Part shown: positions 14,409 to 64,000 of the stretch, piece after piece
Position numbering within the stretch: the first letter of the stretch is position 1
Layout: the number at the start of each line of letters is the position of its first letter
Assembly: GCA_905178155.1 (NCBI GenBank)
Contig: CAJINV010000001.1
Coordinates: 12,504,676-12,568,675, forward strand
Direction of reading: 5' to 3'
Source: Amoebophrya sp. A120
Taxonomy: Eukaryota; Protista; Dinoflagellata
Length of the DNA stretch: 64,000 bases
Notes under the pieces: model-generated
Told to the model about the DNA's origin: nothing
Seen by the model: only the letters and a program-made list of their open reading frames with translations
The model's database searches: none
Made by a program: the position numbers and the translations under genes

Positions 14409-17400
14409 TCAGTGCGTCTCGTCGCACAGCCCCTTGAACCACAGATCGGCCTTCGCTGCGCTGGAGCCACGAGAAGCCGCACTGACGTCTCCAAAGAGGT
14501 CGAGCAAACCAATGATGAGCAGCATCACCGTGCTTACGAGGATAACGCCAGCAAGGAGTAACGCGATGACTGACGTTCGGTTGTATTTCTTCACGTAGTA
14601 ATTGATTACTGATTTCCCCAAGATCGCCCCGCAGCAGCACACGACCGCGAAGAAAAGCGAGTACGCGAGGGGCGCTTGGCCGCCAATGATAAAAATCGTA
14701 CTGGCGGTGGTGGACAGCATAAACAGCGTCGTGGCGGTAGTCGCGGTTGTTACCTGCGGTTTGATGACGAAAAGTAATCCCAACTTTTGCTTTGAATCTT
14801 TTATCGCATGATGCCATTGGAAGATCATCTCTCAGTAAACTAAAATTTCAACAAAGCACACAAACCTGGGGCCGCAAGCCCATCTCCATCATGATCGGAC
14901 CTAGTAGCATGCCACCCCCTATGCCGCACATTGCGGCTATGACTCCAGCGCCGTATGCGTAGAAAAGCAACCGCAGTGCGTTTTCTCGTGTGTCAAAAAA
15001 CTCCCACGTGTCGCGATAAGACCTGAAGTGTGACAAAACCAAGTCGTATTCTGCTGCGGTTTTTCTTTCAGTAGGGTGTCCTATGAGAGGCAAAAGCAAA
15101 TATGAGAATCATGAACGCTTCGATCGATAGTAGAGAATAATACTTCGCTTCGACTTGCTGCCCGTTGCCTCCTGGTGTAACGGACACGGTTTTCCTCTCT
15201 TCGTACTGCTTGACCAGGCTCTGCGCGTGTCTGTAGGCGAGATTATCCCACAGAAAAAAGCTGGCAGGGCATATTTGTAATGCAAAAAGAAATACACAGA
15301 AAAATCTGTCATGGGCGACCTCGTAGCATGCTATTTCGGGTATGCAATACAAGTTTTCTTGTCCATTTATTTTTGCATTACAAATATGACCTGCCAGTTT
15401 TTTTCTGTGTGATAGAGATACAACAGAACGGAGGTGGCACTGAGGAGGATGAGCCAAAAGAGCGCGGTGCAGTAGCCCAAACTTGTCTTTACCTTGAGGG
15501 GGATCGAGATCGAAGTCGTTCAGTAAAATAAAGCGAAAACGCACTTAGAAATCTTTATTTTGTTCAACGAGCAAAGTCATTGCATTAACACAACAAGTAG
15601 CCACAACTTCTTACCCCCGACACGACGAGCATGATCATCCAGACCCCGAGAAGCATTTTTTGGATTCCGGCGTCACTGACCTTTCCCCGCGAGGACCTCG
15701 CTATTGTAGACGACAGCTCATTCACCGGGGACGGCTGCGCGCTATCCACCGTGTTGCCCTTCCCCGCGCTCGGTGGTTGTATTCTCAGTGTGCCACTCGC
15801 CACTGGAGACAGATTGTGGTCGACACCCTTTATTGGCGAATGATTCTTCGCGATCACCACTTGCTCCATGTTGCTGCCGTTGGTGGGCACCAGAGACAGA
15901 GAGGAGGAGTGCGCAGACGAGAGCGGGGACGTGGTCAACCCGGTCTCCTCGCCAGGACTGTTTTTTCTTGCAAGAGTTTTCGGATTATTTCCATGGTCGT
16001 CAATTTCCCCATGATCTCCGTCGGCGTTCCCGATCACCTCGGGCACATCCGCGTCCTGAAACTCCTGGTAGCTGGTGGGGGTGCTGCCCACCGAGGAAAG
16101 TTTCTGACTGATCTGGTAAATCACGTTCGGATTGGAGGTGCTACCGGATTCGGTTTTCTGCAAGCCAGGCCTCGCTCGGGCTTGGTTCTCGTCTCGCCAG
16201 AGGGATAAGCCTTTTCGCAGGGTCCTGCGGCCCGAATCGGTCAGAACTGCGATGAGGAGAAACAGGATCAGCCAGTCGGGTGATATCTTGTGCACGACGG
16301 CGCCCATCTGTACACCGGCCATGAGAGGGAAACCGAGAATGGCGGTGAGGTCGAAATCCACCATGGACCGGGATTTGTCGGTGGGGTGGCGCTGCTTCAG
16401 ATTGTAGAGAAGCACCGAAATCGCGCCGCCCGCGAGCATGGACTGCATTTTATTTTTCGATAAAGCAGTATTTACAAAACCATGACGTCATCAAAATGTC
16501 GCAGCAGCACTGCAGTGAAAGAACTACTTACCTGGTCACGAAAAACTCTATCCGAAAAATCCTTAAACAACCTTCCTCCCTCACCTGCGAAACCGCCGTG
16601 GCTTTGTGTGCTCGAAACCTTAGCAGCAGAATCAGAAGTGGCACATAAATGCCGCCTCCGCCGACCCCGGCGGACAGTGCCAGGCCAGAGCCGAGAAAGA
16701 ACAAAAAGGTTCCCAACAGATCCATATCGACTGGATCCGCGAATAACTCCTTGTGCCTGCAAACCCGCTCCGCGTCCCAGAAGTCGCAAACCCGATAAGG
16801 ATATGCCGCGCACTCCCGCGAGGAGACGCAGGTCCGATGACACCTACCTTCTCGACAAACTTCCGTATCGCCACACGTTGGCGCCGTCCACAGCGAAGTC
16901 GCCCAGTTTGTGGCTGCACCGCTCTCCTGTTGCGGTAGATTTGCGTCGTCGCCGCAAGAGACCCCGACGCGGACTTCCTTTGATTTTGGCTGGAAGGCGT
17001 ACGTCCGGAAGATACTGGCCGAAGCAGCCGTGCCCACCGCGTCCTCCGCACAGCGCCCCAACATCGGGTCCGCGGCCCGGCAAGAGCCGCGCATCACGCG
17101 GCAGACACTGGAAGTATCCCCCTTGTGTACGGAGGCCGGTGCGTTTTGCAGCGTGCTTGCGTACTCGAGAAAGTCGCAGTTGCTACTTATGCAAAACTGT
17201 TTGCACTGCGCCAGCGTCGTGCCGCGCTGCCCCGCGAATGCGTGGGCGGCCAGGGGGTCTTTACAGCACCCGGAGCCTTCGTCGATCCACACATCGTGTC
17301 CGGTGAAGGACAGCTGCTTCTGCAGTACGTCCCCCTGATAAACCAAATCGTTCGTCAAATTCCGGACTTCCGCGGAAAACGTGTGCTCGGGCCCGTCCAC

Positions 17401-18021
17401 CCCGGCGTTTTCCGGCACGACCTCCAGAAACCGCGCGTCGCACACCCGGAGTGCGCAGTGCTGCGTGGCGGCGGGGGTGTAGCAGGAAGCGGGTAGGCGG
17501 GAATACGCCGTGGGGCCGCTGCGGAAAATCAGCGGGCCTAGGCTGCTTGATTTTGACCAGTCCGATACCCCGCCGGGGTCTAGTTTCAAGTGTACCACCG
17601 TACACCCTTTGCTGCAGAGTGCCGCGGTAGTTGTTTCACTAGTTCCTCCGCTTGGCGCCATGGTGTGGCAACTGGCTGCCTGTGTGCAGTACTGCGCCAG
17701 CCCACGCTCCTCCTGTGGGGAAGTCGGACACAGGTGCGGATTTGTCGCCGGGCAGACGTTGTGCCCACCGTGCGCCTGATCGCAACACGCCTCGCCGTCC
17801 GAACAGGTCGTCCCATCGTAGCAGGTACTTGACGTCGACGGTGTATGGCCTAGCGGGCAGGCACGAGAGAACGGGTAACTGGTCTCGCCGTGGGCTGGGG
17901 CATGTGTGGGAAATGTCGCTGCGCAGCTTAGAAGGACAACGGCCCGTTTCCGGCTTTGTGCAGTGCCGGTGCTAGGCCCGCTGGTGCCGCAAACCGGACG
18001 CTTTGGTATGAAGCCCTCCAT
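14409..18021 (-). CDS. TauE/SafE (DUF81) family transporter with Cys-rich N-terminal extension
   Basis: Motifs LALSAGVGGGGIYVP and AAMCGIGGGMLLGP plus multiple TM segments; GT-AG introns 16443-16584, 15493-15614, 14754-14865; introner at 15244-15414. Confidence 0.85.
15244..15414. mobile_element. Introner, family B (171 bp)
   Basis: TIR tatcccacagaaaaaa...ttttttctgtgtgata; TSD gagat at 15239-15243 and 15415-15419; removal gives SVLLYLAYRHAQ. Confidence 0.92.
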
Positions 18022-18506
18022 CTGGTGGTGCAGACGAGCAGTGAAGATGTACCGCTAGCACGTGCGACGGGCCTTCATTTTGAAATATATTTCAAGAACT
18101 GGGACAGAAACGGTTCAAAACTTCGATGTAGTTTTTGGTATCAACGAAGGCACATCAAAACCATGTCGTGGGCACAAGATAAACACGAATTGAACGATCG
18201 CGAATTCGGTGTAGATACCGAACGAAATATTGCGAACACCACCATTGCTGTCAAATTTGACTGGTTCAGTCAGGAAGGTTGCAACCCTTTCACCGTCCGT
18301 GTAGCGTAAAAATTCTCTTCTTTCGAAGCACTTGAAAATTCGCAAAAAAGAACTCAGTCCTCGCGCAAACAAAATCTAATGATTTCGATATCCCCGGAAG
18401 CAGCCGCCTATCCGAGGCTTTTGTGCGTAGAAATTATGTCGCTGGTGAAAAGATTGTCCATCATCAAATTCGGCCGTGGTTGTTAGGTCTGCAAGAACTG
18501 TGTTTG

Positions 18507-20464
18507 TCAGGACAGCGCCGGCGACGCAGTTGCGTTTTTCCCAAATATTCTGGAACCGCCGACGATCAGAAATGGTGTCGCGAAAAGGAATATCAAATGT
18601 AAAAATGTCTGGGTCTGGAAGAATGCAACTTGTCATGCTAACTCTGAACCCTGGAACCTGAAGCATGCAAAAATCTGTGTTGCATGATTACCAAAAGTCG
18701 TCCAGTTTTGACCAAGTTGCCGCGAGGGAGTTTCTCATGCAGGATAGGCATGAGAGAGATCGCACAGAATCTATCATGCTAGGCCCTGCATTCCAGGCCT
18801 CATGGATCATGGAAACGCTGCATGACAAGTCGCGCATTCTTCCAGGAGACCCAGACATTTTTACATTTGATAAGGAAGACGAAGTGACTGAGCGCGTTGT
18901 GATTCACGTGCGGCATGATTGGGTGCAGAGCGCATGCGGTTGGGTTTTCTATCCAAGCGGCGCCGCACGCGCGCCCGAGTGTCGTCTGCACTGCAAAGGC
19001 ACTAATTGCGACTACGAGACCGAAGAGAAACACCAGCGGTGCGTTGGTGCCGCATACGCAGAACGCTTTGGTGTACCTGTTTATTTTGTGGAAAAGCAAT
19101 TCACGTGCAAAGGTTTTCTTTTTATGAAACAGAAACTCGCCAAAACAAGACAAAACAAAAAAAATGCAGAACCTCAGACTATCAATACCTTGCAACGACT
19201 CCGCCGAGCAGCAACCACGCGAATAGGTAGCAGCCCCCCAGTACCAAGAATGGCAGCGCGACAACGAAGTGCGTGAGGCACAGCAGAATTGTTGTTACCG
19301 TGATAACCAGGTCCTCGGAATATTCAGTGAATGCTCTCACGCACAGGCCATTCAACCCTTTCCCCCGTTGCAGAAGAGGCTGCGCTTCGCTTCCAGGGAA
19401 CACCAACGCTTTTGCATGCTGGTCGTGGTCGCGTAGCGGGCTCTTCTTGCTTCCCCTCGTTGATGCCGAAGTGCTACTTCTGGACGGACCCGCAACGCTC
19501 GCTCGCGAACTCAGTGCTATTTCAGGGCCAGTTGTACTGTTAGGGCCTGCTAGAACTACGTTTCTGCTCGAAGAGCCCGGTGCTCCGAATTCCCCGGTGA
19601 TAATTCTTGATGTTCCTTGCTCCACCATGGGAGTGTTCACGTCTTGCGACAGCAGCTCGCGCCGCATCCGGCAAGCAAGCAGGCACAGGAAGGCCGACCC
19701 CGCGAGGCATAAAAACCCGGTTGCGGACCAAAGCAGGTGGTCTATCGGCCGTTCGGCCGGGTCGTCAGACGTGCACAGCAGGTGCAGCACTCCGCCGAAA
19801 AAGGTGCCGAGCGCGATACTGTACCAAGACAGTTCGTAGAGATATTACAATGAAAAATGCCCCCTCCCCATATCAAAACGGAAATCTGTGATGCAGATTT
19901 GTGGTCACAAAACAGCTTTGTGATGCTAGAAGGCAAAAGATGCGGACTGTAGTGCTGCCTAGCGTGGGAAAGCCTTGCAGCTCCAGGATGACAGGAGGCA
20001 ACAGGAAGTGGGAAACAGCATGACAGATTCCCTGCAATTCAGGCCGCAGCTTCGTCTCTTGGCCTTCTACTAGCAATACAAGTCGATTTGTGTACTCAAA
20101 TACAGTATCACAAATTCGCGCATCTTCCGCTTCCGATATGGGGTGGGGGCTTTTTTCACTTTGATAAGAGAAAGAGGTTCATCTGCGAGCTCTGCAGGAG
20201 CTGCTGTAGTCGCCGCGCCGTGTAGGACTGCGAATCTTGTTTCCCCTCCATGATCTCGGCGGTTGGCGATATTATATTCCCGATCGTCCATCGCGCGCGG
20301 GATAAAAACCAGTAGGTCAGGAAAATTTGCACGGCGGCATTCAGAAAATCCGTCGCGAAGGTGCCAAAGCTGTTGTCGCAGCCGTGCTCAAAGTAGAGCC
20401 GCCCGATCAGGTCGCGCCGGTCTAGCTTTGGCTGCGCCAAAAGGTCAAAAGTTGGGTTCGTCAT
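18507..20464 (-). CDS. Multi-pass membrane protein, CREST-superfamily/DUF6962-like
   Basis: Reconstructed after removing two introners and GT-AG intron 19077-19188; motifs FATDF, FFGGVLH, NHNALSH; family assignment tentative. Confidence 0.65.
18591..18872. mobile_element. Introner, family E (282 bp)
   Basis: TIR tatcaaatgtaaaaatgtctgggtct; TSD aggaa on both sides; removal gives LSHFVFLFATPFLIV. Confidence 0.92.
19843..20166. mobile_element. Introner, family D (324 bp)
   Basis: TIR tattacaatgaaaaatgccccctccccatatc; TSD agaga; removal gives QMNLFLYELSWY. Confidence 0.92.
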
Positions 20465-23479: not shown

Positions 23480-25230
23480 AGTCGGGCGATTGGAGGTGCC
23501 AGACACCGACCCAGACCGGACCCGGCCGGTGTTGGGCGGACTCCACAAAGACCGGGCCGCGCCTGTGCGGGCGCGCCGCGAAGAGGGCCCGGCGCCCGGC
23601 CCGGGATAGCGAGGGGCGGCGATATCATCCGAACCCCAAAAAGTTGTGTCCGAGTGCGAGCCAGCCCGCAGGCGCCGCGGCCGCGCGAAGTAGTGCAGCG
23701 AAGGAGAGCCAGGCGAAGGCCTCGGCCCGGCGGCTGTCGAACCGGGGGCCCGGGGGCGCTGCGTCCCCGCCTGCCGGCCCCGGCGGCTCCGTTGCCTGCA
23801 CGCGCGCGCCCTCTCCGCGGCGCCGCCTGGCGGGGCTCGCCCGGTTGTTTTTGTTGGCGGGCCATTTGGGGGGCGCTCGGGAGTCTTTTGCGCAGCAAGC
23901 GCGCGCGCCAAATTCTGCGCGCCTCCTACCGCCCGGCGCCCCGCGCTGCCTGCCCCGGCTGCGGGCCTCCGAGGTATTTCACCGCCCCCGGCTTCACGTC
24001 TGTAGCCCCCATCCGCGCGGCGGCTTCCCCGGATCTCCTTCTTGTAGAACTCCGCGTCACCGAAGGCCAGCCCATCGTCAACGTGTAGGCAGATAAAGCC
24101 CGCGTCTTCCCCCGGGCGGCTTCCGTCCCGTGAGTGGCGTCCCGGCCAATTCCGGACGCATCCCGGCGCCCTACCAAGAGGGCGGGCCCGCTCCGGGCGC
24201 GCGCGCCCCGAAACTAACAACAAAGCCCGAGGCGCAACGCGGCGCATTGCTAGGCGAGCCGCGTCGGCGCGCAGTTGCAATTTGCGCAGTAATCGGGGCG
24301 AATTTTTAAATTTTAACTCGATCCGGGCTGCACAAGAGGGCTGATTTTTAAAAATTGGGCAGCGTTCCGGGGTGTTCCCTCGGCCCGTAGGCGCCGGCCC
24401 CCTTGCTTCGGTCCGAAGGCGCCGAGCCCGCCCGAATGCCGCCGGCCCGGCCTTCGTCAAGAGCGCCGGCGAATCGCACGCGCTGCGCGCCAGGCCGGGC
24501 AGGCGCCGCCGCGCCAAAACCCACGCCGGGGCGCCCGCCGGCGCGCGCGCCGTTTCGCCGGGGGCGAAAGCTAGGCGGCCTCCAATGCGGGCGCGCCTTC
24601 CCCGGCGGATCGGAGGGCCCCGCCTCCCGCGCGCCCCCTGCTCCGCGAATCCGCGGGCCCCCAATCCCGCCTGGTGAACTCCGCCCGCTTGCGGCCCGCT
24701 TCGTGGTGAGCCGCGTGGCGGCCCTAGTGGTATCTACGCCATGGCGGGGCGGGGCAACGTTGCCGCCCGGCCGAGCTGCGGGCCCGCCCTCCTCTCTTCC
24801 GCGCGGGGCCGGATGGGCGGCCGCCCCAAAAAGGCGGCCCGAATGGCGTCGCTCGCGCTCCGGGCGCGGGTCTACAATGGCCAGGCGAAGGCAGCAAGCT
24901 GCTGCCCGTAGCCGCAGGCGCCCGGCTGCCGTTCTCCTGCGGCATCGTCGCCGGCACCACGCTAGCACGACCCTGGTCCCCGCGGCCTTCCGGAAAGCTC
25001 GGGACGTCAACCGATGCGACCGGATACCGCGCCCCTTGGGGCCGCGCCGCCGAAAACGCTGGCGCCTCGGCATCGGTTACACGCGCCACGGCTGGGCCGG
25101 TCCTGGGTGAGCCTAGACGCTACGCACCTGGGCGCAATTAGAGCGATGGCGCCGAACTTCGGCCCGCTCTTACAACACGCCGCTGCGCTGCGGCGCCCCA
25201 CCAAAACCCCAGCGCGCCCGCAGGGTAGAG
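23480..25230 (-). mobile_element. Degenerate Ty1/copia-like retrotransposon relic, extremely GC-rich
   Basis: Frameshifted reverse-transcriptase remnants GFICLHVDDGLAFGD (~24060-24100) and KYLG; abrupt rise in GC; boundaries approximate and no LTRs seen. Confidence 0.65.
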
Positions 25231-25861
25231 TCGTCACTATTGCGGCATCATCCGCAAACTCCACGTCGACGGGCAGCTCTAGAGCCGTAGTACAGAAGGG
25301 AGCAAGGGGGAACAGAAGTAGAACACAACAACCCTCATTGTCCGCGTCTTGCATCAGTTTTCTGTTCGTTGGCACGTTATTTGGGGATTCTCCCGAAAGG
25401 TTCTGACACGACATTCGAATGTTCGAGAGCAGCAATCAGAGTACAGCAGTTCGCATCGTGCTAAGATATGGCTCAATCGCATCGAATCCTTCAGTAGGCA
25501 CAGTTGCGCTCGGGTCTGGCCCGTATTCTACTTTCTCATATACGGTCAGGCAGCTTCTTGCGGACCCTCACCTTTCCTGAGGATAAAAAAAAACTCGCAC
25601 TTTTTTCCCGTACTTCTACTTTGACTTTTTCGGAAACAATTATCACTGCAAGTTATTGATCATTCATTCCATCTATCTAGATATCTTTTCTGGAGTAGAG
25701 AAAAACACTTTTGCCGTCAGCTCTGGTAAAAATTCAAACATCATCTCATACGGGAACTGCCCTCGTGCGTAAAATCAGATATACTAAAAAAAATCGCTGC
25801 GTATTCAAAGGATTCAGTTTCCTCCTTGCGAGGATGACTCGTCGCCAGTGCGTGCTTTCGG

Positions 25862-28800: not shown

Positions 28801-31800
28801 TTGCGTGACCCACCGCATAGCCGATCGTCTCCGACCGGAAGGGGGTGAAAACCGTAAAGGGGTAACTCGCGAACAAATTCTTCCCCGGCACCGCCCACGT
28901 GTTTGCGGACAGCAGGCCCCCGTAGTTCAACCCGTTATTTTTGACCCTCACCCGCTCCGCCGGTGCGGACTGCGCGAAGAAACTGCTCTCCACGGTAAAC
29001 GCGTTGCGCACGCCAAACTCCTTGCCCACAACCGCCCGTATGGATGTGTCAGAGTTGAAATCGACAAAGTTGAAATAATTTGTCATGCATAAAATGGATG
29101 CCAGTTGGAACCCAGTTTCCAAGGGGCGCATGACAAATTTCGGTGGTCCCTAAATCCAGTCTGTCATGCTATTTAGGCGAAGAAGAGCGATTTTCTCATG
29201 CTACTTTAGCAGCTCGAGCTGTAACCCCAAACAGGCTTACAATCGGCCTCACTTGCCTGCCCTGCAACACACGTGCCTCGGGTCATGCATTTTATGCATT
29301 TTATGCATTACAAATTATTTCAACTTTGACGATTTCAAACCTGACGCTTCCATAGCCCGCGCGGATTTCGTATGCGATTTCCCGTGCTGCCACCTATCCC
29401 CCAGAAAAAGACCGACAGGTCATATTTGTAATGCAAAAATAAATAGACAAAAAAATCTGTATTGCATGCCCTAAACAGCATGCTATGGCCTCGCCCATGA
29501 CAGATTTTCCTGTGTATTTATTTTTGCATTACAAATATGACCTGCCTGCTTTTTTCTGTGGGATACCACCGGCAGTCTTCGAAGGATATGTCCCGCGTGG
29601 CTAGAGACGCGAGTTTGGGAAACAGGGCGCTCTTCGCGTCCGTGTAGTGCTGGCAGCCGTAGAAGAATGCGGAGCACTTCGCGCTGTGCCCGTGAAGGTC
29701 GAGAAAAATGTCCACGCTGTCCGGCGGGAGCGACCGGAGATACTCCTTGATCTGGTGGATAACTGGGTGGATGATCGGGTTCGGATCGTGCCAAACTCGG
29801 TTTGGATCCACGCCAGCGAGCGTGCAGCGCGCGTTGCCGTGGACCACGCCGTCGATGTTGACCATCGGGATCAGGTGGAAGACGAACTTCTCGCGAAGAA
29901 CCTTCGCGTAGAGACTTTTGCCAAGCAGGAACCGCATGAAGCCCTGCATCACCCAGCTCCCAACCACTTCCCCACTGTGCTGGCGCGCAATCACAAAAAT
30001 GATGCGTTTTTTGCCGAAGGTCAGGTCGGCAATGTGCTCTTTCACCGTTTTCCGGATTCCCGTTGGCGAAATCTGCTGCTTGTCCATCTGCTCCTGGGGA
30101 AAAAGTTTAGATGACAAAAATGAAAATTGGAAGTAGAAAATCTTAGTATAGTATTACTTCTGCAAAGTATAAAATGGAACCAGAGGAAAACAAAAAGCTT
30201 TCCCGCTTGGCAATGGGCACTTACTTCTTTCTCCTTTGCTGTCTGCATGGCGTTGCCCAGGTTTTCCGACACCCAGAGCAGGGGCACCGGCACGCCCGCG
30301 ATCGTGCGGCAAAGCTCAGAAGCGATCACGTGGTCCTGCTTTTGCACTTTCAGTTTATCCAAGAACAGGCGCAGCATCGTGTAGGTGTAGGGGTAAAACA
30401 GGGCGAAAAACACCGTGTCCTCGGCCTGGAAGCGGTACGACCACTGCAGACAAAACCGGTCGGCCTTCGCTTTTTTCGCGGGGAAGTAGTCCAGGTCGAA
30501 GCAGCAAAAGCACGACCACTTTTGCTCCTTCACGGAAAAGACGTAGGGCTGGAGGCCCTCCTGGTGCAGACTCTTGTTCTTCTTCAGATTGGCGATCCGG
30601 AAGTGCGTCACGATGTCCTTGTCCGTGTACGACCGACAGCCGAAGTAAAACCATTGCGCGCAGCCGACGGTGTGCGTGTCCGACTCTAACCAAAGCTCGT
30701 ACGAATAGTTGGGCACGGAGGCGTCTTTCTCGAGATCCGGCGACTCCGGGCGGGTGTAGGCCTCGTTCTCTCCCGCGGCGGAAATGAGAGACTTGATAAC
30801 TTTCGCGTTGTTTTTCGTTTTCGTTTGCGCAACCCGGCTGGAAAGATTTGAAGCGGAAGGTTTCGCGCTGGAAGTTTCGAAGCCGTCCTGCGGATTGCGA
30901 TCGTTTTGTTGCGGCCCTTGCGGCCGCGAGGATGCGTCGCCTGGCGCGGTTTGCCGACCGGGTGGGAAATTGCTTTTCTCTTCTTGCCCCGCAGCACTTG
31001 GCATTTTCGCCTCTGCCTTCACCGCTCCCGCGGGGCGATGCGTCCCTTTCCCATCCGGATCCGAGTCTTCGTCGCTGCTTTCGAGCAACTCCAAGAGCGT
31101 CCGCACCTCGTTGTCGGGCGGTTCCGGCGGCAAAGCGTCTTCGTCGTAGTTGCTTGCGCTGTCGCCGTGCTCGAGAGAACTAGTTTTGCTGATTGTGATG
31201 GCGGGGCCTCGCGTCGGAAGCTCGGTGCCCGGAATCGCGGCAAACGCAGCCGACGTCCGCGCGTGCAGATGGATTGTGTCTGCGACGGTTCCGCCCCCGC
31301 CGCCCGCTGCCTCGCCGGCCGCACTGCCGCGCCGGGGACGCGCAAAGCCCGGCGTCGTAGCGCGGTCGGGATCCGGCTGGCGGCAGCACACGCGCCGCAC
31401 TTGGGCCAGGTTCGCACACTCGAAGCAAGCATTGAACGCGAGAGGGCCGTGCGGCCACTCCGCATTTGCGCTCGGCGGCGGAGGAAAGACAAGTCCCTCC
31501 GGTAGGCAAGGCAGGTGCGGCGGCAGTTCGCCCTTCTCACCCGAAACGTCGGCGCCTTTGGTATGCGGCATCGCTTAGTATTTGATGAGCAAGTCTCAGT
31601 TGAAATCCCAAAAGCAACGGAACATAATGCGACGCTAATGTCCTGGTTGCCATCAACACAAGCTGAGTACCTTCTACAGGGTACGGACTGGAAATGTCGT
31701 CCATCCGGTGCGCTTGTGCCTTCACCGCGAGGGTGCGCGCCATCTGCTTCCATTCCTCTCCGCGCCGATTATACACGGTCGTGTACGTGTACGTGGGCTT

Positions 31801-33690: not shown

Positions 33691-33790
33691 NNNNNNNNNN
33701 NNNNNNNNNNNNNNNNNNNNNNNNNNNNNNNNNNNNNNNNNNNNNNNNNNNNNNNNNNNNNNNNNNNNNNNNNNNNNNNNNNNNNNNNNN
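33691..33790. other. Assembly gap (100 N)
   Basis: Run of n. Confidence 1.
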
Positions 33791-35427: not shown

Positions 35428-35484
35428 AGAGACGCTCCTCCGGGCTAGGGGGCCCCGCTTCTCATTGTTGCCCCGCGCAGTTTC

Positions 35485-35962: not shown

Positions 35963-35971
35963 GCTCGGTCT

Positions 35972-40153: not shown

Positions 40154-42181
40154 ATGGGTGCGCAAGTGAGCCAGGGGCTCGACGCGGTGCTGTTCCAGCC
40201 CCCGGAAAGGGGCGCGGAGCAGCCCGCAGGTCAACCAAGTGCGACTGTACCTGGGCGCATAGGCGGCGAAAAGAACTTTGTGACAATCCAGACCCGATTA
40301 GGCGGCCACATCACCGCATACTCGTGGAACATCGGGGCGCGGGATACGATCCTATTCTCCCACGCCAACGCGGAGGACTTGTCCTGCTGCGTGGACTTTA
40401 TCCAGCGCATCGCCCGGTACTTGCGCGTCAACGTCTTTGCCTACGACTACGAGGGGTATGGGACTTCGACCGGGAAAGCCAGCGAGTCCGCCCTGTATGC
40501 CGATATAGAAGCTGCATACACCTATCTCAGGTACTGGGTAAAAGACGGATTTTTTTTTTCCTGTACGAAAGACTATCAGCTGCATTTGTGCCAATTGGAG
40601 ATCTCGATGCGCACGTGCTACTTGTCTTTGTACGAACAAAACATCAAAAAATCACCTAAATACTCCTCCAGGGAAGTGGTCGGCGTCCCGTGGGAGCACA
40701 TCATTCTGTACGGCCGGTCCATTGGCACCGGGCCCACCGTGCACCTGGCTGCCTCTGCGCCGGTGCGCGGCGTTATTGCGAGGAAAAATCCCCCCTCCCC
40801 ATATCAAAACGAAACTTCTGATGCTGGATTTGCGTGCACAAATCAGCCTTGTCTTGCAGCAGAGAACTGCAGCCCCTCCATAGCAAGCCTGCGCGGCGAG
40901 GTTTTAGCCTAGGCGCTCAGCATGACAAAAGCCTATGCCGTAGGCCCAACAGCATCGCAAACCGCTGGCATAATGCGGGAAGTCTTTTGGGTTTGCCTCC
41001 TTATGCAAGACAGAGACGATTTGTGATCACAAATAAGCATCACAAATTTCCAAAAATGTACCTTTTGAATATGGGGAGGGGGGATTTTTCCGCACAATAG
41101 GCGTGATTTTGCAAGCCCCGATGGCCAGCATCTACCGCATTATCCTGAGTAAAAACGTCCCCACACCAGAGTTGTAATGCAAATCTGCATGCCAAAAAAG
41201 TTTCTCATGCGGAGCCCCATGAGAAGCATTTTCTAGTCGTGTTTTTGAGTTTGTGATGCTAGAATGAGCATGATATGCTAGATCTGTGATGCTGCTGAAC
41301 TAGCGAAACAGGATCATACTAGGAGGGCAAACCTGTCATGCGAAACAGCGAAAGCTGGTTGATTTGTCTAGCCGATTTCCCATCTTGACTCTGGTGTGGG
41401 TACGTTTTTACTCAGGATACGCATTGTGTTTGATTTTCGCTTCACGATGTGGGGCGATCAGTTTGCGAACATTGACAAAATCGCGCGCGTCGCCAGCCCG
41501 GTCTGCATTGTGCACGGCATTGCGGACGAGATCGTCCCGGTATGGCACGGTGTAGAGCTGTGGAAGAAATTGCAGCGGCCGGTGGAACCGCTGTGGGTTC
41601 CGAACGGCGACCACAACGCGTTGGACCACGAGATGCTGTTGCGCAGGGTGAAACTTTTTCTCGTCGAACTTGAGCACATGGGGTTTTCCGAGAACCAGCT
41701 GAAGCAGGCACTACAGGAAACGGAAGAGATCGAGCGCTTGAAGTCCGACATGGACGGAACTGGAGACTTGATGTTCACCACCACGGGCGGCGGGGAGACC
41801 ACTTCTGCGATGCAGCCGGAGTCCGCTCCTTCGTCAAGAACTTCTTCGAGCAGCCGACGATCGGAAGGGAGTCGCGAGCCGCGGGAGCGCTCAGAACTGA
41901 TACTGCGGATCCACGGCGGGAGAGACAGTTTTTCGGAAGTACGTGCCAACTCACCGCACAATTCCTCCGAGAGCAGCGGAAGAAGCATTCGCGTCGGCAC
42001 CTCCGTGGTCGCACGGAACCGCGCCAGCGTGCTGGCGTATCTCGAACAGCAGGAGCACGCTGCTTCCATGGAGGAGGCGGCTTTGGCTGCGGCAGAGCTG
42101 CTGGAGGGACCAAATAATAGCAGGAGGGGGAGCAGAGTGGTGACAAGAACGGAAATGCAAAGGGTGCCGCTGCGTCCGTGA
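40154..42181 (+). CDS. ABHD17-like alpha/beta hydrolase (putative depalmitoylase)
   Basis: Motifs SHANAEDL, YDYEGYGTSTG, YGRSIGTGP, GVILQAP, DQFANIDKI, VHGIADEIV, GDHN; GT-AG intron 40531-40671 plus two introners; N-terminal MG. Confidence 0.9.
40774..41099. mobile_element. Introner, family D (326 bp)
   Basis: TIR tattgcgaggaaaaatccccctccccatat; TSD ggcgt; removal gives PVRGVILQAP. Confidence 0.93.
41141..41419. mobile_element. Introner, family C (279 bp)
   Basis: TIR tatcctgagtaaaaacgt.cccacaccagagt; TSD cgcat; removal gives SIYRIVFDFRFT. Confidence 0.93.
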
Positions 42182-49200: not shown

Positions 49201-51655
49201 GACATTTTCAACCAGAGCACCACCGTGAAGCAAACACGAGCGAGAATAATGGCTTTGTTTCAGCAGCAAGATAATGGTGCCGGGTCTCAACATTCAAAGC
49301 GAACATTTAAACATTTTTGCAGCGGTGCTCTGTGTGCGCCAGTTACGTTTGCAATTTGTGTTCCACTGATTTCAGTATGAGGCCAAAGATGTTGGCATTT
49401 TTCTACGGATCGACCGCCCTTTTTGATCGCTTTTGCAAATGGATCTAATTTTTGGATGTTGAGATCTGCCAAATCAGCTTCGACACAATCGATTTTAGTC
49501 TTCTACTCTGGAAGCCAGTCGCTTCACCCTCTAGTACCTTCGTCTCACGCATGAAATTTTTTCTAGTCCAGCAACAAGGCCAAGAGGGTTTATTTTTAGC
49601 AACCACTGAAGTAGTAAGGCTAGGGTTTCTTCGAGGGATGCGCATTCGCACAAAATGAGTGGCTTAGGTCTACACGTTTTTGTACAATTGTAAAGAATTC
49701 TTGTGCGACGTTTTTACATTTCGCTCCCACCATGCCAACCTTTATTCTCGGTGATTCAGTGCTGCCGATCACGAAGGCGAACAAATGGTGGACCAAAGTG
49801 GAAGAAGCGCCGCTGCAAATCCTCGCCGCCCGGGCGCCGTACCACTGCTATGTGGAAAAGCTGTACTACTGGAACATCAGCCCGCGCGCGCAGAAACTCG
49901 CACTGTGTCCCTTCAACATAAACGAAAGTGCGGGCCTGTTCTCGTCGACCTTTGATGCGGAGAAGACAGGTATACACAATTTGCGCTTGTTGGAAAACCA
50001 AGCATTTTTTTCTTCACGATTTTTGAGTTCTCTGTAGGTGAATGAAGTTTGGTATTTTGTTGTGCTCACCAATTCATTTTGAAGCATAACTCAGGTACTC
50101 CCTGTTCCTTCGCGTTCGTGGCCGAGAACACGGAAAATACGCTGCTTGAGCTGGAACTCAATCCACCCCTGTTGCTCAGACGGAGCGAAAACATCGGCAT
50201 GTGGGACCAGGAGAGCGGGGCACTCAACGTCGTGTAAGTCTAGTAAAGTTGCTTGTTTGATGTTCCGCTCTGAAATTTTAATTTTTTTCAGATGTAGAAA
50301 GAGTGGTAATAATATTCAAAGGAATTCATGAAGCAAAAACACCTCAGGTCCACTTGGAAACGAACGTTCGCCGGCTCTTTCAGTGGCAGCAGCGATGACC
50401 ATCTGGGCTACTTCCAAGCCTCCACACACCATTTTACCGGCGTGAAAAAGGTAAAGTCCTACCTTGCCTTATCATATGTAAAAACGTCCCCACACCAGAG
50501 TCAAGATGGGGATTTTGCAACACAAACCTTGAAGTTTGTGGGGTCACGCATGACAAGTTGCATGCTGTACTGTAGTGCAGCTTAGCAAGGGAAGCCGCAT
50601 AACACATCCATCTCCTTATCCTGTTTGCAACATTACAAGTTCCAAAACACGATGGGAAATGCCTCTCATGGGGATGCGCATTACAAATGCTCCTGTGCTT
50701 GCAAATCTGCATGACAACTCTGGGGTGGGGATGTTTTTTCATAGGATATGCCTACAGCACCAACTGGTACGTGACCTTCCGGCGACTCACCAAGGAAGAG
50801 CTATGAACTGCAAAAATGTCTAGGTCTGGAACTTTGCTCGACTTGGCATGCAGGTTTTCCATGACCCCTATGATCTGTTAAGGAGGACCTAGCATGACAG
50901 ATTCCGTGAGATCACTATCATGCCTATCCTGAATTAGAAACTGCCTCTCAACTTGGTCAAAAGTGGACAGCGTTTGGCAATCCTGCAACACAGATTTTTG
51001 CATGATGCAGATTTAGCATGACAAGTTCCAACCTTGCAGACCCACACATTTTTGCAGTGCATAAGAGCGGGACGCGAGCAAAAAGAAGAAAAAGCCCGAG
51101 AAGACGCAGCCGGTTTTGCAGCTTGCGAACAGTGACGAATTCGAGCGAAAAGCGAGCTTGCGAATTGCTTCACTGCAATCCGGCGACGCGAATTTGCGGA
51201 GGCATCCTCTAGTTCTCCAGCAAAGCGGCTGTACGAATTCTGCGGACGATCATTTGCCTGAGCTGCAACTCGAACCCGCGCCGGCAGGATACAAACCGAG
51301 GCCCGTCGCCGAGCAGCAGACCGCGACCTCCACTGGTGCAGCGACTCACAGCGCTCAAGAAACAAGCAGTAGTTCGAGTCAGAAGAAAGAGGGGAAAAGA
51401 AAGAAAAACGCCGCAAAGGAAGGCGAAGAAATATCAGGAGATCCGTCACTTCCCGGAGAAGGCAGCGACGACGCGGCGGTCTTCGAGAGCGAGCAGATAG
51501 AACCTGCTCCTGTGTCGCTCAATGACGTGACGCCGAAGCCAATGGAATGCTCGGAGGAGTCAACGGTTGATGACGAGATGAACACGACACCGGGGTTGAG
51601 CACCTCTATGTCACGGGAGGAAGAGGAGAATCAAATACCCGAGATCGCGGACTGA
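46258..51655 (+). CDS. BRCT-domain protein with REV1-type N-terminal BRCT; multi-exon, linkage of exons after ~49.3 kb uncertain
   Basis: EYMAMKSARMKEQF and LFQGLTFWMTG...ILQHGG...VSHIIA...VVLPAWLEDCIRENKILPETEY; the 3' exons join in frame after removing introners at 50470 and 50802. Confidence 0.65.
50470..50748. mobile_element. Introner, family C (279 bp), inverted relative to the 41141 copy
   Basis: TIR tatcatatgtaaaaacgtcccca; TSD tgcct; removal gives KSYLAYSTNWY. Confidence 0.92.
50802..51063. mobile_element. Introner, family E (262 bp), diverged and inverted relative to the 59167 copy
   Basis: TIR tatgaactgcaaaaatgt...acatttttgcagtgcata; TSD agagc; removal gives LTKEERDASKKK. Confidence 0.9.
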
Positions 51656-52151
51656 AATTTTTTGACGACTTGTTTTCAATCATTTTTCGCACAAATAAAC
51701 CATATTCACCACCTAGCGACAGCATAAACATTTGACAGCAAAAGTGCTAGTATTTTTGCCTCCTTCGCTTATTTCAAATAGCGAAATGAGATGTGTGACG
51801 TTGCCTGCTCATGTTCATCTCTTTTCCAGTAAACTACTTATACTCCAATGATCAAGCGCGTCTGTGTAAACAAAGAACCTGAGAGTTGTGTTGAGAGCAG
51901 ATGGAAGGTGAGATGACTTGGGGCAGGTTTGTTTTTGCCTCGCGGAGTGGCTGCTTACGAAGACAAATTGAGAGGGTCATATCTGTCGTTCAGCGGAATG
52001 TGGTACTACTTCGCAAAAAAAAATCTATAAAAATGTTCAATAAATACTCGTAGTTGTTTCATCCCAGCAGGAATTCTTCGAATTTCGACCAAAGTGTAAG
52101 AGAAAGGTATAAGAAACTTTTGGCGACTCGTCCCAGCGGCGCACCGTAGCC

Positions 52152-52881
52152 ATGGGGGGTTACAAGCAGTTGCATCACATGTGGTTTAACCGCTACGTGA
52201 TGGGCATGTGGGCGACGGGCTTCATTTGCAACTGGGCCACGGACCAGTGGTATCACATTCCGCGCGATCGGGTACTGGATTTTCTACGCATGCTATTTGC
52301 TTCAATTTTCAACTATTTTGAGAAAAGTGCAGAAAAGAGCTCGCGTTGCGCTGTCGTTGAGAACAAAAGAAAATTGCGCCTCCAAAACGATGAAACACGA
52401 CAGAACGCAAACATCCGTTGGCAGTATTGGATGGATCTTTGTAATGCGAAACGTGCGGGGGAGATCGATCCGACGATGCCTGGCTATATGGCCATGAAGT
52501 GGATTATGGAACTGTCAGGATTGAAATTAACAAAGTTGAAATAATTTGTGATGCATAAAATCTATACCAGTTGGGCCCACAGTTTCCAATCGGCGCATGA
52601 CAAATTTTCCTGGTCTCTGAAGCAAGTCTGTCATGCTGTTTAGGGCAAGATGGCTGCTCCCTGTCATGCTAGTCAGCAACCCAATTGCTGACCCTTACCA
52701 GCACTAGAATCTGCCTCCCTTGCGCCTTCAGCAATAGAGTCAGTCTTTGTGTCGCATTTTATGCATGGCAAATCATTTCAACTTTGCCGATTTCAACTCT
52801 GACACATCCATATGGATTAACGATCGTGAAAGTATCGAAGGAAGCAAAAGCCTGTCACTTCTCAATTTGCAACTACGATAG
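52152..52881 (+). CDS. Small hypothetical single-TM protein
   Basis: MGGYKQLHHMWFNRYVMGMWATGFICNW...; probable short intron near 52272; introner removal gives AMKWINDRES. Confidence 0.55.
52505..52812. mobile_element. Introner, family A (308 bp)
   Basis: TIR tatggaactgtcaggattgaaat...atttcaactctgacacatccata; TSD tggat. Confidence 0.92.
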
Positions 52882-53596
52882 GCATCATGACAAAGAATTG
52901 GCTCCGGCTGAGTCTGTCTTCGGCATGGGCGAAAAGCACATGATCTTGCAAGTGACACGGTTTTTGCCACGCATACGGGAAATTGCATGGGAGAACCACG
53001 GTATACACTGCTACGTTTTTTGTTTTATGCTCCGCAGAAGTTTTACTGCAAGCATGATCAGTGCCAAAGGCGCCGCATTTTTGAAATCATGATCCACAAA
53101 CAGCTCGCGAGTACCCCGGTTTTGAGATGCCCGAAAGCTAGATGCGAAAAGAGGGTTGACGAGTTATGGGTCCGTACAATGCAACCAAGAAGAAAAAGTA
53201 AGCACAGAGCATGAAGAGAAGGGTAGACATAAACCGCTTGGTGATGTGCATGATGCAATCAGCGCTGCTTGATTCGCAACCTTTTGCAGCAGCACTCGCT
53301 TGGCTTGCTTGAAAGAAGATGAAAACTCAGCATTTACTAGGAGGGACATGGATGGCGATTGCACTGGACGCGAGTGTGCGTCTCATGTCGCCTGGAGATC
53401 GCCGAGTTGGTGTCGTCAATAATATTTGGCAGATGTTCTTCATTTTCAGAAAGAAATACGGCTGTTGTTTTTTTTCGCGATTAGAACTGAAAAATTTTTG
53501 CCAGCAGATTTTTATACAGAGCAATTTTCTTTTCCTGTTCGTTCCTGCCTCTCCGCATTATTGCTTGCAGCACTGCCCCATCATGGTATAGCCAAG

Positions 53597-54766: not shown

Positions 54767-55476
54767 GTGGTCATGGACATGGTTGATTTTGGTGCCCAGA
54801 CAGTTTCTCGCCCACCTAGAGGCGAGCACACATGTTGGTTTTCCAAGATACGCAGCAAATAATTAAGTTGTAACCATGTCGAGACAAGAAGCCGTGTTTG
54901 TACAGTATGGCCTCGACAAGATGATGCTGGTGCAGTTGCCGAACAGATGTGAACTTGTTTCCGCATTGCAATATGATGTTTCCGCTTCACCAAAGGTGAG
55001 AGGAGTACATCTAGGTCGTTACCATTGTGATATAGCAAGAAGCCAGATAGACTGCTGATGTGTGTTCGAGGCGGAAATTTTGATGTCGCATGTGGACGGA
55101 AGTAAAAAGCGTAGCTACAAAGCGTGAGGAAACGGTAACGGACGATGAGATGTGAGTCGTGGTTCCAAAAACGAAACGCAAATTCCGATGTGTGCAAAAC
55201 TCTAGAAGTGTGCTAAGAGTAGGCCGCGAAACATTTCTCTGATTTTGGCTTCAAAAATAATTATGAAAACCTAGCAATTATACTACATCAGTTTCAGTTG
55301 TCAAGAAACTCGTCGGTCGTCACAGACCTCCTTGTGACTAGCAGCAAAATGTCTCGCGGCAGCCCGTTTTCGTAGGAAGCCCTGCAGCTACATTCCGTGC
55401 GACTCCGGTCTGCTAGACAGCTAGTAGCTTCGATTGCAGCGACGTATACCAGATCTAGCGAGGCGCTCCTGCGAAG

Positions 55477-59601
<4,125 letters not shown>

Positions 59602-60539
59602 AGTTTTTGGAGAATGAAAATTGTTATTGTTGCGCAAAAAATTTTCTCGTTTTAGCCAAAGCGCTGAAGCAAAGTTTTATTTGAAGTAGCTCTAGAATCG
59701 TGAGAAGAAGGATATACATTTACCCGGATGCCACGAATCCAATATCAACAAACAAAGCAAAGCTTCACGCTCGCGGAAAGCGAGGCGGGTGGTTAGGTTT
59801 TTTTGGAATCATTGACATTCCGTGGAGGTGCTGTTGTCACACTGCTCTTGAATGATTTTTCCTCTTTATCAACAAATCTATTGTGCGCCAGATTTCTCAT
59901 CTGGCAAGCAAGATGCACTTGGATGCGTCTACCTGAATTTTTCCTCTGTGCATGAGAACGAAAGTTCGCATTTATTTTGACTGAAATCATAAGTGTTTCA
60001 GTCGAGGAAACATGATGAAGTTTTTTATGTCTGCAACTGTCGCTGAAGCGCAGGCGCACTGGTGGAGCACAACTACCTACCCCTTGCACCAAAAGACATG
60101 TGCCTCAGTGTTCATCGCGACGTCAACAAAGCCCAGTGTCGGTCAGAATTAAGTCAATGGCTCCTGGTCGAAAAGTTGAAATTTTTTGCTGATCCGGTTT
60201 TCTAATTTTGTGTTTGCAAAAACTGTACCTGCTTTCGCTTTGCACATCACTGGTTTTTCGACCATTTTGCACTTTACGTTCTGTTATGCTCACGCACTTT
60301 TCTCTTCTTCAGGAGCCATCTGGTTACAGCCACACATCTTATCAAGTACTATTGCACGTCGACCCATCATGAACTACAATCAGTCTCTGCTTTACCACGT
60401 TTTCTATACGACCTAATTTGTTTGTCGAATATACTAGAAATAAAAAATGTGATAGTCATTACTTTTTGACGACTGACCCATTTACCAGTGGTCAGGATAA
60501 AAATATCCACTCCCGGGGAGGTTCTTTATCGAGCGAAAA

Positions 60540-61964
60540 ATGGCGTCGCCCACGAAGGACGACGGCAAGGCCGTCGCGCGGGCGATGAACAACCTACAGG
60601 CTTTCGCCATGCTCGGCCCCGGCATTCTGACCAACACAATGAGCTACGGCGTCGCTCCGGAAACGGGGCAGGACTCAGAGCTCCCAGACGCGTCGCCCAC
60701 CAAGGAAGAAGAACCGCCGGAGGTGACAAAAGCTGCTGACAATCTCCCGGTGATGAAACCTGGTATCAAAATCCGCCTAAAGAACAAAAGCGTGTTGCGG
60801 TTTTCTATTTTTTCTTGTTGCCTTTCCGGCGTAATTAAGTAGCTGATTTCGATGTATACCACACAGTAAGTCTCCACAGACATTCACATACCAATGTCTA
60901 CTTCGCGTGTTGAAAATACCTACCCAGGCCCCGCAGTCAGCCGAGACCAGCTCCTAGAGCTGTTGAAGGAACTCGACAGCTACAAACCCACGGCCAAGGA
61001 GGTGACAAAGCTAGGAGCACAGCTCATAAAAGAGGGCTCTTCAAAGCTTTCTTTTATACAGGCGTGGGAGAAAATCGAGGCACTGGGACTGCCACCGGAT
61101 CCATTTGACAAGTATAGTAGTTTTGGTTTTTCTACTGTTTATAATTTCTGAGCCTCTATTACATTAATGTGCAAGTCCATTTGGTCAGAGACCTGATTTA
61201 CAACGTGCCGTTGCAAAACAACTATCGCGAATAAACAAAACACAGGCACAACCTGTCGGAGGCTCGGTTTCAGGAACTCTTGAGCCAGTACGTGAACGAC
61301 GACGAAGTTTGCAACAAGGCGAACGCCATTATGCAGAAGATGCACGAACCCGTGTTGGATGCAAACCGTAGCAAAAAGGATCTGTCCCCGGAGCAGGTGG
61401 TCCAAATTCACAAGCACATGATCGACGTTCTGAAGGATACCATCACGGAATTTTCCGCGCTGCCCCGGGAAAGGAGACATAAGTTCTCGGCGAAGCAAAC
61501 GGAGACCGTGTCGGAACTGTTGGTTTCTATGTCCGTGGAGCGGAAGTTTGGAGCAAATTCTGACGATGTGGAGGCCGGGTTGATGAAGTATGAATACTTG
61601 ATGAACTCTGAGCAGGGCGGAGGACAATTCGCGGAACTCACACAGCAGCTGCAGGGTATGAGACTTTACTTTTACTACTTGCAGCTTTAGATAGTATTAT
61701 TTTTCGTAGGATGATAGATGAGATGCATCGACATTTATTTTGATCGAGAAGACGACGGGCTTCTTGCAACAGAAGCCGAGAAAAGCAATGAATCACCCCA
61801 CTTATCTTGATCGATCATTTTCCTATCAGGTTACATGTCTGTGCTGATTTCCCACGCAAGGCCACGGCTTACTGCGGAGAATTTCCGAGGGCTGCTGGCC
61901 GAGCTGGCCAGACAAAACAAGAAAATGAAATCAAACATGTCCGAGATGTATGCCGCGTGGAGCG
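60540..61964 (+). CDS. Helical hypothetical protein, multi-exon; 3' end interrupted at the 61965 element
   Basis: Exons MASPTK..., PAVSRDQLLELLKEL..., HNLSEARF..., GYMSVLISHARPRLTAENFRGLLAEL... joined by GT-AG introns; no stop before the element. Confidence 0.6.
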
Positions 61965-62243
61965 TATCCTGTGCAAAAACATCTCCACCCCAGAGTTGTC
62001 ATTCAGATCTGCAAGCACAAGAGCATTTGTAATGCGCATCCCCATGAGAGGCATTTCCCATCGTGTTTTGGAACTTGTAATGCTGTGAACAGGATAAGGA
62101 GATGGATTTGTTATGCGGCTTCCCTTGAAAAACTGCATTACACTACAGCCTGCAACTTGTCATGCGTGGCTCCCAAAACTTTAAGGTTTGTGTTGCAAAA
62201 TCCCCGTCTTGACTCTGGGGTGGGGACGTTTTTACAAATGATA
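61965..62243. mobile_element. Introner, family C (279 bp), with non-matching flanks
   Basis: Near reverse complement of the 50470 copy with intact TAT...ATA ends, but flanks are gagcg and taggt. Confidence 0.9.
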
Positions 62244-64000
62244 TAGGTCCGAAACCTCTTCCGGCTCGATCTTCACGATCGCCCCCGCCGCGGCTTCGAA
62301 CACTTGTATGGGAGTGTCAGGATCGAAATCGTCAAAGTTGAAATAATTTCTCATGCATAAATTGCAAGGCATGAAGTGCCTCTCTTGCAGGGATGGCAAG
62401 TGAGGCCGACTGTCAGCCAGTTTGGGGTCTGAGATAGAGCTGCTGAAGTGCATGACAAAAGACGCCTTCTGTCCCTAAACAGCATGACAAACTGGATTTA
62501 GACGGTGCCGAAATTTGTCATGCGCCACTTGGAAACTGGGCTTTCAACTGGTATCGATTTCATGCATTACAAGTTCTTTCAACTTTGTCGATTTCAATCC
62601 TGACACATCCATAACTTGGGGCTCCCTGTCATAGTGAAAATTTGATAAGTACAAAGTTTGCACAAATGTACTTGCCACAAGTAGTTGTTGAACGCGAAAA
62701 CCAAAACCGCCAGCGCGAGCGCCGCGCGAAACGCGGCATTACAAACACAAACTAAAAATAAAACTTGCGTGGTCTTTCTCGCATGACAAATTGTTTCATC
62801 ATGATCATGTGAATGAAGTCTATTCCAATTTTTTGTACGGACGACGAGAAAAAAACATTCGTGATCGGTATAGGGAAAAAACGCAATACGCCAACTTCAC
62901 CCGGACCATTTCGTCCTCGTCGATAGCGAAAGTATTCCACTCCGGCACTGCGATGTAGCACGCTTTGTAGTAGTCCGACGCGAACCGGCCCTCCTGAAAC
63001 CTCGTTTGCATCTTATGCAGGAAAAAAACTATGTACTGATGCAGAAAATGCAACACAGTTACACTTGTCATGCTGGAAGTGCGTCATAGCCGTGCTGCAT
63101 ACTGTTTTCACGTACTAGCTGCGCATTACAGGGTGTTTCTGTAATGCAAAACGAATTTCTTATGCTGCCCTAGCTACAAAGTTACGCTCACACAGTTTTT
63201 TTCACGGATACATCTTGGCGTTCTTGCACTGTTCCGCGTCGATTTTGTAGCCGATCAGACGAAAGGAATCCGTGAGCACGCAGGGGTAGCGGCTTCCCTC
63301 CCCGGTCTTCGTGTTCTCATACAGTTCGGCCCGGAGAACGTATGGCACCACGCTGCCGTCGGCCTTCGACATCTCGAAGGGACTGGACTCTTTCACGAGC
63401 TCGAAGGTCGCGGAAGTAGTTTTCCCGGTAGAAGGAGTTGCCTTCTCTTTATTTTCGCCGTCTTCGCCTTGCTGCTTCTCGTCATCCCGTCTTGTTTCCT
63501 TGATCCTAATCCGCTTCGTGCGCTGCAAAGATTCTTGTTCTTCTACCTGCTCCCTCGTGCTGGTCGCGACCGTTTCCTTTTTTTCCCCGACCGCCAGCGC
63601 CGCGGAGGGGTTGTAGTACTCTGCGTCACTTGTGACCGCGAACGGTGCCGTCCTGGTGTCGCGGTCGACATGATGATCGGGCTCGATGCGATTTACCACT
63701 GTGGCGCTCGTCTTCCTACTAGCTCCACTTGTTTCTCTTGCCCTTTCATCGTGGTAGTTTTCTGGTCCCGCGAGGCCACCTGCTCTTTGTTCACCAGACT
63801 CATCATGGTTCGCGGACAATGAAGGTGGACTGGCTTTATTTTTTCCCACGAAAAGGCTCTCGTCGTCATCTTCCGTCGGCTCGAAGATGTCCCGGAGCTG
63901 CACGGGTTCTCGGCGCAACATGCGCCTCCGCTCGGCGGCGACGAGAAAAAGGGTAGGTGTGGCATCGTTCTGCGTCGAAGGCACAGGGTTGGAGAGAAGC
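62244..64000 (-). CDS. Hypothetical protein, multi-exon; begins beyond the window end and runs into the 61965 element
   Basis: ORF 63202-63984 continues as KMQTRFQEGRF after introner removal; further short exons stay open to 62244, frame of the last exons ambiguous. Confidence 0.55.
62307..62613. mobile_element. Introner, family A (307 bp), inverted relative to the 29039 and 52505 copies
   Basis: TIR tatgggagtgtcaggatcgaaatcg...atttcaatcctgacacatccata; TSD acttg. Confidence 0.92.
63014..63210. mobile_element. Introner, family F (197 bp)
   Basis: TIR tatgcaggaaaaaaact...agtttttttcacggata; TSD catct; removal gives KNAKMQTRFQ. Confidence 0.88.

Follow-up and report, generated by a model that had tools for sequence, protein, structure and literature searches.

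The 64,000-nucleotide stretch of the genome of the dinoflagellate Amoebophrya sp. A120 analyzed here (contig CAJINV010000001.1, positions 12,504,676 to 12,568,675; hereafter, the window) contains exon-interrupting palindromic elements that are bounded by TAT...ATA and flanked by 5-bp target-site duplications (TSDs). Our analysis supports the removal of these elements at the RNA level with the loss of exactly one TSD length and shows that GT or AG ends are not needed for it. The cuts probably follow a fixed rule, one base before TAT and four bases after ATA (below, the -1/+4 rule). Removal is most likely carried out by a modified U2 spliceosome making these fixed cuts in elements that spread as DNA transposons, a combined reading to which we give about even chances.

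The elements are the A120 introner elements published in 2021 (PMC7789003) and not only similar to them; one window exon matches a single protein, from Amoebophrya sp. A120, at 100% identity. When TAT...ATA pairs with terminal complementarity (3342 pairs) were scanned for an exact flanking repeat of 5 bp, 15 elements were found in the window and none in each of 10 block-shuffled windows. Fourteen of them lie inside 15244..63210 and the fifteenth, at 10492-10703, lies ahead of that range. The initial annotation of this DNA, which counted 15 elements and 14 exact TSDs, is thus borne out by the scan, but it missed the element at 10492 and a decayed copy at 52833-52975, which was found by a gapped scan and an RNA contig. 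The element at 61965-62243, with flanks that agree in 2 of 5 positions, brings the number of well-preserved copies to 16, 15 of which have an exact TSD.

Removal of the elements from RNA

Joints were taken from assembled contig sets, X1 (DNA-like) and X3-X6 (RNA-like), mapped on the window outside of 30301-44000; for the right-hand part of the window (X1, X3 and X4), 15 of 180 joints are listed, and absence there proves nothing. The X3-X6 contigs skip ordinary GT-AG introns and are therefore spliced. All RNA evidence consists of contigs assembled from two samples of a single study; their RNA status is an automatic guess, no record labeling them as RNA, which weighs against our reading. A raw-read RNA run (X10) contributed 16 reads only, all at element ends, and is uninformative on expression.

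At least seven of the 15 exact-TSD copies are skipped in RNA-like contigs together with exactly 5 nt. On the minus strand, the joint at the family 6 element 10492..10703 (TSD GTACG, as read on the plus strand) skips 217 nt (212+5) in X3-X6, and that at the family 1 element 15244..15414 of a TauE-like gene (GAGAT) skips 176 nt (171+5) in X4-X6; the family 2 element 18591..18872 (AGGAA) and the family 3 element 19843..20166 (AGAGA) are skipped in X3-X6 by joints of 287 nt (282+5) and 329 nt (324+5), respectively. The gene at 18591 is placed on the minus strand because of a CT..AC joint in the same contig. On the plus strand, the MCM6 gene is interrupted by a family 3 element, 58795..59105 (TTGAT), and a family 2 element, 59167..59432 (GGCGG), and the corresponding joints skip 316 nt (311+5) and 271 nt (266+5) in both X3 and X4. 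The family 4 element 52505..52812 (plus strand, TGGAT) is crossed by an X4 joint leading from 52506 to 52980, with 12 exon letters in between. Thus, the proposal of the initial annotation that RNA junctions would lose the element and one TSD length holds for at least seven of the joints listed. The element joints are found in the same runs, and mostly in the same contigs, as GT-AG intron joints and at a contig depth equal to that of the GT-AG joints of the gene, i.e., the elements share transcripts with ordinary introns, as had also been proposed.

Two other exact-TSD copies are supported indirectly. At the family 2 element 50802..51063 (plus strand, AGAGC) an X3 contig piece begins at 51063, at contig letter 693, and at the family 6 element 63014..63210 (minus strand, as judged from the open frame; CATCT) an X3 contig piece stops at 63211, within its record. 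Four copies are mapped with no joint listed: the family 5 element 50470..50748 (plus strand, TGCCT), for which there is none among the 15 of 180, the family 4 element 62307..62613 (minus strand, again from the open frame; ACTTG), and both elements of the minus-strand cytosolic carboxypeptidase (CCP) gene, 29039..29354 (family 4, GCCCG) and 29395..29565 (family 1, CCACC). Coverage of the CCP gene in X3-X6 is little or none, which is no evidence either way. Homologue alignment indicates the same mode of removal there: among ten variants tried, the top summed score against 34 homologues was obtained when the element plus 5 nt was excised from both sites, and the junctions were free of gaps in five of the six alignments listed. 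The last two copies, 40774..41099 (family 3, GGCGT) and 41141..41419 (family 5, CGCAT), interrupt a plus-strand alpha/beta hydrolase gene outside the RNA-mapped region, whose open frame is regained after removal of the element plus 5 nt. Of the gene names in the initial annotation, MCM6 and CCP are supported and the hydrolase is an alpha/beta hydrolase, while TauE is weak (Pfam E-value 0.0013, below the curated cut-off). An exon of the hydrolase had no solved-structure match, and the name ABHD17, given on account of motifs, is tentative.

The same joints could arise without any removal of the elements from RNA. Template switching at a hairpin with a short direct repeat is a known reverse-transcriptase artefact, and the elements are classic substrates for it. 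However, retained elements would disrupt MCM6 and CCP by stops or frameshifts, there is no repeat at the joint of the decayed 52833 copy, and the joined contigs are as deep as the GT-AG joints of the gene; we consider RNA that keeps the elements the least credible of all explanations. Alternatively, the elements may be excised from DNA at some life stage, as ciliate internal eliminated sequences are, with the transcripts coming from element-free DNA. TA-ended palindromes that carry a TSD and whose removal restores the site exactly do resemble DNA excision substrates, and the DNA evidence comes from one DNA-like run, X1, which is possibly the source of the assembly itself. Yet X1 shows no element-free form at either of the two listed MCM6 joints: its contigs pass from the flanks into the elements at the single-copy depth of about 43 and cross the 52833 element without a break. 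Contigs that include elements, from other loci, are also present in the RNA-like runs, as loose ends. The check for element-free DNA suggested by the initial annotation finds the elements kept at these sites, and DNA-level excision is very improbable. The element bins of X1 are far deeper than its unique bins, which is a measure of depth and not of copy number.

Families, orientation and related copies

BLAST among the 16 well-preserved elements confirms the six families of the initial annotation: family 1 (15244, 29395), family 2 (18591, 50802, 59167), family 3 (19843, 40774, 58795), family 4 (29039, 52505, 62307), family 5 (41141, 50470, 61965) and family 6 (10492, 63014). All six are present in the window in both orientations relative to the host gene, with two of the gene strands taken from open frames. 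The well-preserved elements are 171-326 bp long, which is too short to code, and with their terminal inverted repeats (TIRs) and fixed TSD they have the anatomy of miniature inverted-repeat transposable elements (MITEs). Sixteen of the 17 elements, each compared with 20 shuffles, are predicted to fold into a strong hairpin (z from -3.5 to -15.9; -10 for 59167), and the decayed 52833 copy has z of about -1 or weaker. There was no Rfam match in the window. No transposase was found: four long TIR pairs have no transposase frame evident by eye, and no genome-wide search was made.

The motif GCATGACA / GCATTACA and its reverse recur across all six families, in many cases some 35-55 nt in from either end, and are also seen in some canonical introns (12050, 56199, 56245); the motif may serve as a binding site of a transposase or as a branch-like signal. 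One canonical intron on the minus strand, 11972-12095, reads G-TAT...ATA-ACAG and holds the same motif, possibly being an old element turned GT-AG, although one intron in 17 is not above chance.

Sliding the cut within the TSD, as had been done for the initial annotation, reproduces its count exactly: among the 15 elements, GT-AG ends can be obtained at 29395 only and GC-AG ends at 40774 and 59167 only. GT- or GC-AG ends are therefore possible at 3 of 15 copies in any register and at none when the cuts are placed one base before TAT and four after ATA, so that the elements lack the ends of U2 introns.

For a larger sample, a 25-base terminal pattern was used to collect 132 loci (L001-L132) from a related public assembly (JACKZZ01 contigs), whose source is a close relative of A120 (one exon is 93% identical). 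This assembly contains five or more of the six families, with best matches 80-94% identical. This contrasts with the strain specificity reported for introner families in the comparison with A25 (PMC7789003). Among 441 TIR pairs scored, 247 have an exact 5-bp repeat, never a longer one, and 52 copies match at 2-4 of 5 bases after pairs sharing an end with a perfect copy are dropped. The five retained bases fit separately called flank frames in 29 of 33 same-strand cases (37 called). GT-AG ends are possible in any register at 10 of 172 copies (172 of 243 being orientable); G precedes TAT in 46 of 172 and AG stands at the 3' end in 16 of 172, both at about background. The presence of both orientations and the background level of end dinucleotides mean that the signal is alike in both directions and puts no constraint on the terminal dinucleotides. 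The lack of A before TAT among the window copies (0 of 15), which looked like a bias, did not persist in the larger set (57 of 172). No orthologous locus for an empty-site comparison was found among the 132 related loci.

Intron phases 0, 1 and 2 under the -1/+4 rule number 90, 49 and 33 of 172 and resemble those of ordinary introns, possibly as a frame-calling artefact. At L030:3001-3972 there is a 972-bp element with family 2 ends and an exact TSD, whose interior of about 680 bp is unlike other elements and whose longest frame is 86 codons.

Position of the cuts

Since the two 5-mers of an exact TSD are alike, the cut cannot be placed within them, and it is the decayed copies that are informative on the register. 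The decayed plus-strand copy in the window (TAT...ATA at 52833-52975) is an RNA-defined intron at 52832..52979, the flanks of which, GAAAG and CGGGA, differ at all five bases. One X4 contig retains bases 1-4 of the left flank and base 5 of the right one; the intron thus reads G|TAT...ATA-CGGG, with ends GT..GG. Out of six registers (0 to 5), this contig fits only register 4, with cuts 1 nt ahead of TAT and 4 nt behind ATA, and the joined frame stays open.

As the 52833 copy is joined in frame with none of five flank bases matching, TSD identity is not needed at this copy, and the view of the initial annotation that the TSD helps to define the cut does not hold there. Nevertheless, the duplicated 5-mers might guide the cut by aligning with each other, with the hairpin only bringing them near. 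An exact TSD is indeed found in 15 of 16 well-preserved elements of the window and in 247 of about 300 plausible related copies, but exact TSDs are expected of young insertions anyway. The 37 related copies with 4 of 5 matches have their mismatches spread over all five positions, and the 52 copies with 2-4 matches are putative introns. Together with the 52833 joint, this makes guidance by the 5-mers unlikely.

We regard the -1/+4 rule as probable. In the 2021 report, all nine predominant A120 end classes have T in the second position (Table S4, PMC7789003), as N-TAT in register 4 predicts. Several observations weigh against the rule. Register 4 was read from one contig of one run and at one weakly folding copy. 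Codon likelihood in 39 of 47 mismatched-TSD copies placed registers 2-4 slightly above 0, 1 and 5, with a stricter cut-off it placed registers 1-4 above 0 and 5, and mutation-direction counts at positions 2-3 opposed register 4. Annotated A120 families also include GC and GA donors (PMC12130899), which are impossible under register 4, so that the published classes may reflect annotation choices; in the 2021 report the border of the A120 introner is given as unknown (Fig. 3 legend, PMC7789003). A homologue search with an exon of locus L063 gave no A120 protein match over a mismatched-TSD locus, and exact look-ups of 16 locus open reading frames (ORFs) gave one A120 member, at a locus without a mismatched TSD. 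In the literature searched, which mostly did not include subscription papers, no work on how A120 excises the elements or on the register of the cuts was found.

Possible machinery of removal

The anatomy of the elements suggests that they spread as non-autonomous DNA transposons with the help of a TIR transposase. In RNA, cuts would then be made at a set spacing from either end of the hairpin, one base ahead of TAT and four behind ATA. The hairpin may bring the two ends together, the 5' arm may be read as N-TAT, like the G-TAT donors of the host, the 3' arm may provide a U tract, and an adaptor may substitute for the normal recognition of ends. Since the ends of a palindrome look alike whichever strand is read, and since cuts lying 1 and 4 bases outside it take away exactly five flanking bases, insertion in either orientation and at any target would be repaired without a scar.

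A modified U2 spliceosome is our first choice. In the set of 17 RNA-joined GT-AG introns of the window (44650-61828 and 10919-19188), 11 donors start with GTAT, and N-TAT of the elements corresponds to positions +2 to +4 of such donors. A U tract is found about 12-16 nt ahead of the 3' cut, in the 3' arm, in five of six families. In A120, 83 of 89 spliceosomal proteins were found, and U1 and snRNP27 were not detected (PMC7789003). In yeasts, +4U donors go with the loss of SNRNP27K (PMC11732430) or METTL16, and the spliceosome of Fritillaria handles non-canonical introns (PMC11282704).

A number of observations speak against the spliceosomal part of this reading. All 17 non-element introns are strictly GT-AG, TAT is predicted to be paired with ATA in most copies, and family 4 has no U tract. 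No drift toward GT-AG was seen in mismatched-TSD copies (G at +1, 3 vs. 3 of 10; none toward AG), and no lariat, branch point or transposase was seen in the material, which is assembled contigs only.

It is also possible, though we consider it distinctly less probable than a modified spliceosome, that the same hairpin-ruler code is read by a separate non-U2 machinery, either a structure-reading endonuclease acting with a ligase or a second dedicated complex, as was proposed for the nonconventional introns of Euglena; of all readings, this one comes nearest to that of the initial annotation. The absence of constraint on either terminal dinucleotide and of drift to GT or AG, the orientation independence of the elements, and the strictly GT-AG ends of ordinary introns in the same transcripts would all be accounted for by such a machinery; in Euglena, the N3-CDG...CH'G-N5-6 code gives circles, and distinct factors were suggested by the authors (PMC12501133). 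On the other side are the identity of the element TAT with donor positions +2 to +4 in 11 of 17 canonical introns, the presence of a near-complete spliceosome (PMC7789003), and the fact that no candidate enzyme was identified in this analysis. The claim of the initial annotation that removal is independent of U2 signals stands as far as GT-AG ends are concerned; the second splicing system that it proposed does not follow, and a modified U2 spliceosome accounts for the data about equally well. The strongest form of that proposal is a second splicing code N|TAT...ATA-NNNN|, measured from the hairpin base by non-standard machinery and blind to dinucleotides, TSD identity and orientation; it would take out exactly one 5-bp duplication, so that insertions anywhere would do no harm, and would have an origin separate from that of the Euglena code. 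In our opinion it is rather doubtful.

The element at 61965

The family 5 element 61965..62243, with unlike flanks GAGCG and TAGGT and no assignable gene strand, had been listed in the initial annotation among those interrupting exons. It instead joins the 5' half of a plus-strand gene to a part of a minus-strand gene. The loose end of an X4 contig behind 61964 continues in frame and matches the rest of the A120 protein P0001, residues 318-527 of which are not in the window, and the DNA to the right of 61965 seems to be part of a gene read in the opposite direction. Most likely, the assembly was misjoined here through two copies of family 5. Less probably, a real rearrangement set the two half-genes side by side; trans-splicing of the two half-genes, which would produce the contig from the DNA as assembled, is also less likely.

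Relation to known systems

The published A120 introners have inverted repeats of TAT followed by seven variable bases and at least three A, direct repeats of 3-5 nt (5 bp in the Fig. S19 legend), and 29,850 copies in 1,954 families (PMC7789003). In the window, the TAT-N7-AAA left end is found in 13 of 16 copies, the three family 4 copies having TAT and no A run. The organism, direct repeats, hairpin, families, mixing with GT-AG introns and lack of an internal transposase are shared, and the two sets do not differ in kind; the present copies add a TSD of 5 bp throughout and a single junction that sets the -1/+4 register. Gozashti et al. (2025) described 58 A120 introner families, most of the 22 rows listed being of the TIR DNA type; TIRs, a length of about 150-350 bp and mostly non-canonical annotated ends agree with the present elements, whereas TSD estimates among these rows range between 2 and 5, without a rule for the cuts (PMC12130899). 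TIR family 38 of that study contains ORFs similar to proteins of long terminal repeat (LTR) elements, a possible mobilizer.

The nonconventional introns of euglenids are likewise MITE-like, with terminal pairing, direct repeats at the junctions and GT-AG introns alongside (PMC12501133, PMC11282704), and their spacers between cut and stem are unequal, the one informative junction here giving 1 and 4. In contrast, they have a CAG/CTG motif, spacers of 3 and 5-6, a purine rule and demonstrated circles, whereas the A120 elements have TAT/ATA and probable spacers of 1 and 4, and the lineages are unrelated (PMC12501133). The euglenid signature N3-CDG...CH'G-N5-6|R is not found in the elements, which end in TAT...ATA. 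TA..TA termini are common to the A120 elements and to the IS3EU and GingerRoot transposons, whose transposases are integrase-related, but the TSD of the latter is usually 6 bp (PMC10045372). Here, none of the 247 copies selected for a 5-bp match has an exact duplication longer than 5 bp; this count leaves aside 113 pairs, out of 441, in which 0-1 bases match. The introns of Fritillaria borealis bear TIRs and TSDs and are non-GT-AG, like those of A120, with AG-AC and AG-AT ends preferred there and free ends here (PMC11282704).

Other features of the window

An open frame with an Rce1-like CAAX protease domain (53591-54763) lies directly upstream of MCM6. Two GC-rich regions, about 23500-25250 and 32000-38600, are without clear genes. 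In the second there are tandem arrays (33, 71 and 109 bp) and large inverted repeats, together with a gap of N at about 33692-33790 and, at 34022-34398, a TAT...ATA pair whose flanks are inverted instead of direct; nearly all genes on both sides point away from this block.

Conclusions

The elements themselves have been known since 2021, when more than 60% of RNA-supported A120 introns were reported to be non-canonical (PMC7789003). In this contribution, we added the presence of both orientations in all six families, the rarity of GT-AG in a relative, the -1/+4 cut at 52833 and the joining of two half-genes at 61965. The latter is a warning that repeats of this kind can fuse unrelated genes in an assembly, and the copies with decayed TSDs offer a simple route to the cut position from public data. 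If true, the -1/+4 rule tells exactly where lariats or circles should be sought and would explain how a palindromic transposon can land harmlessly in exons in either orientation.

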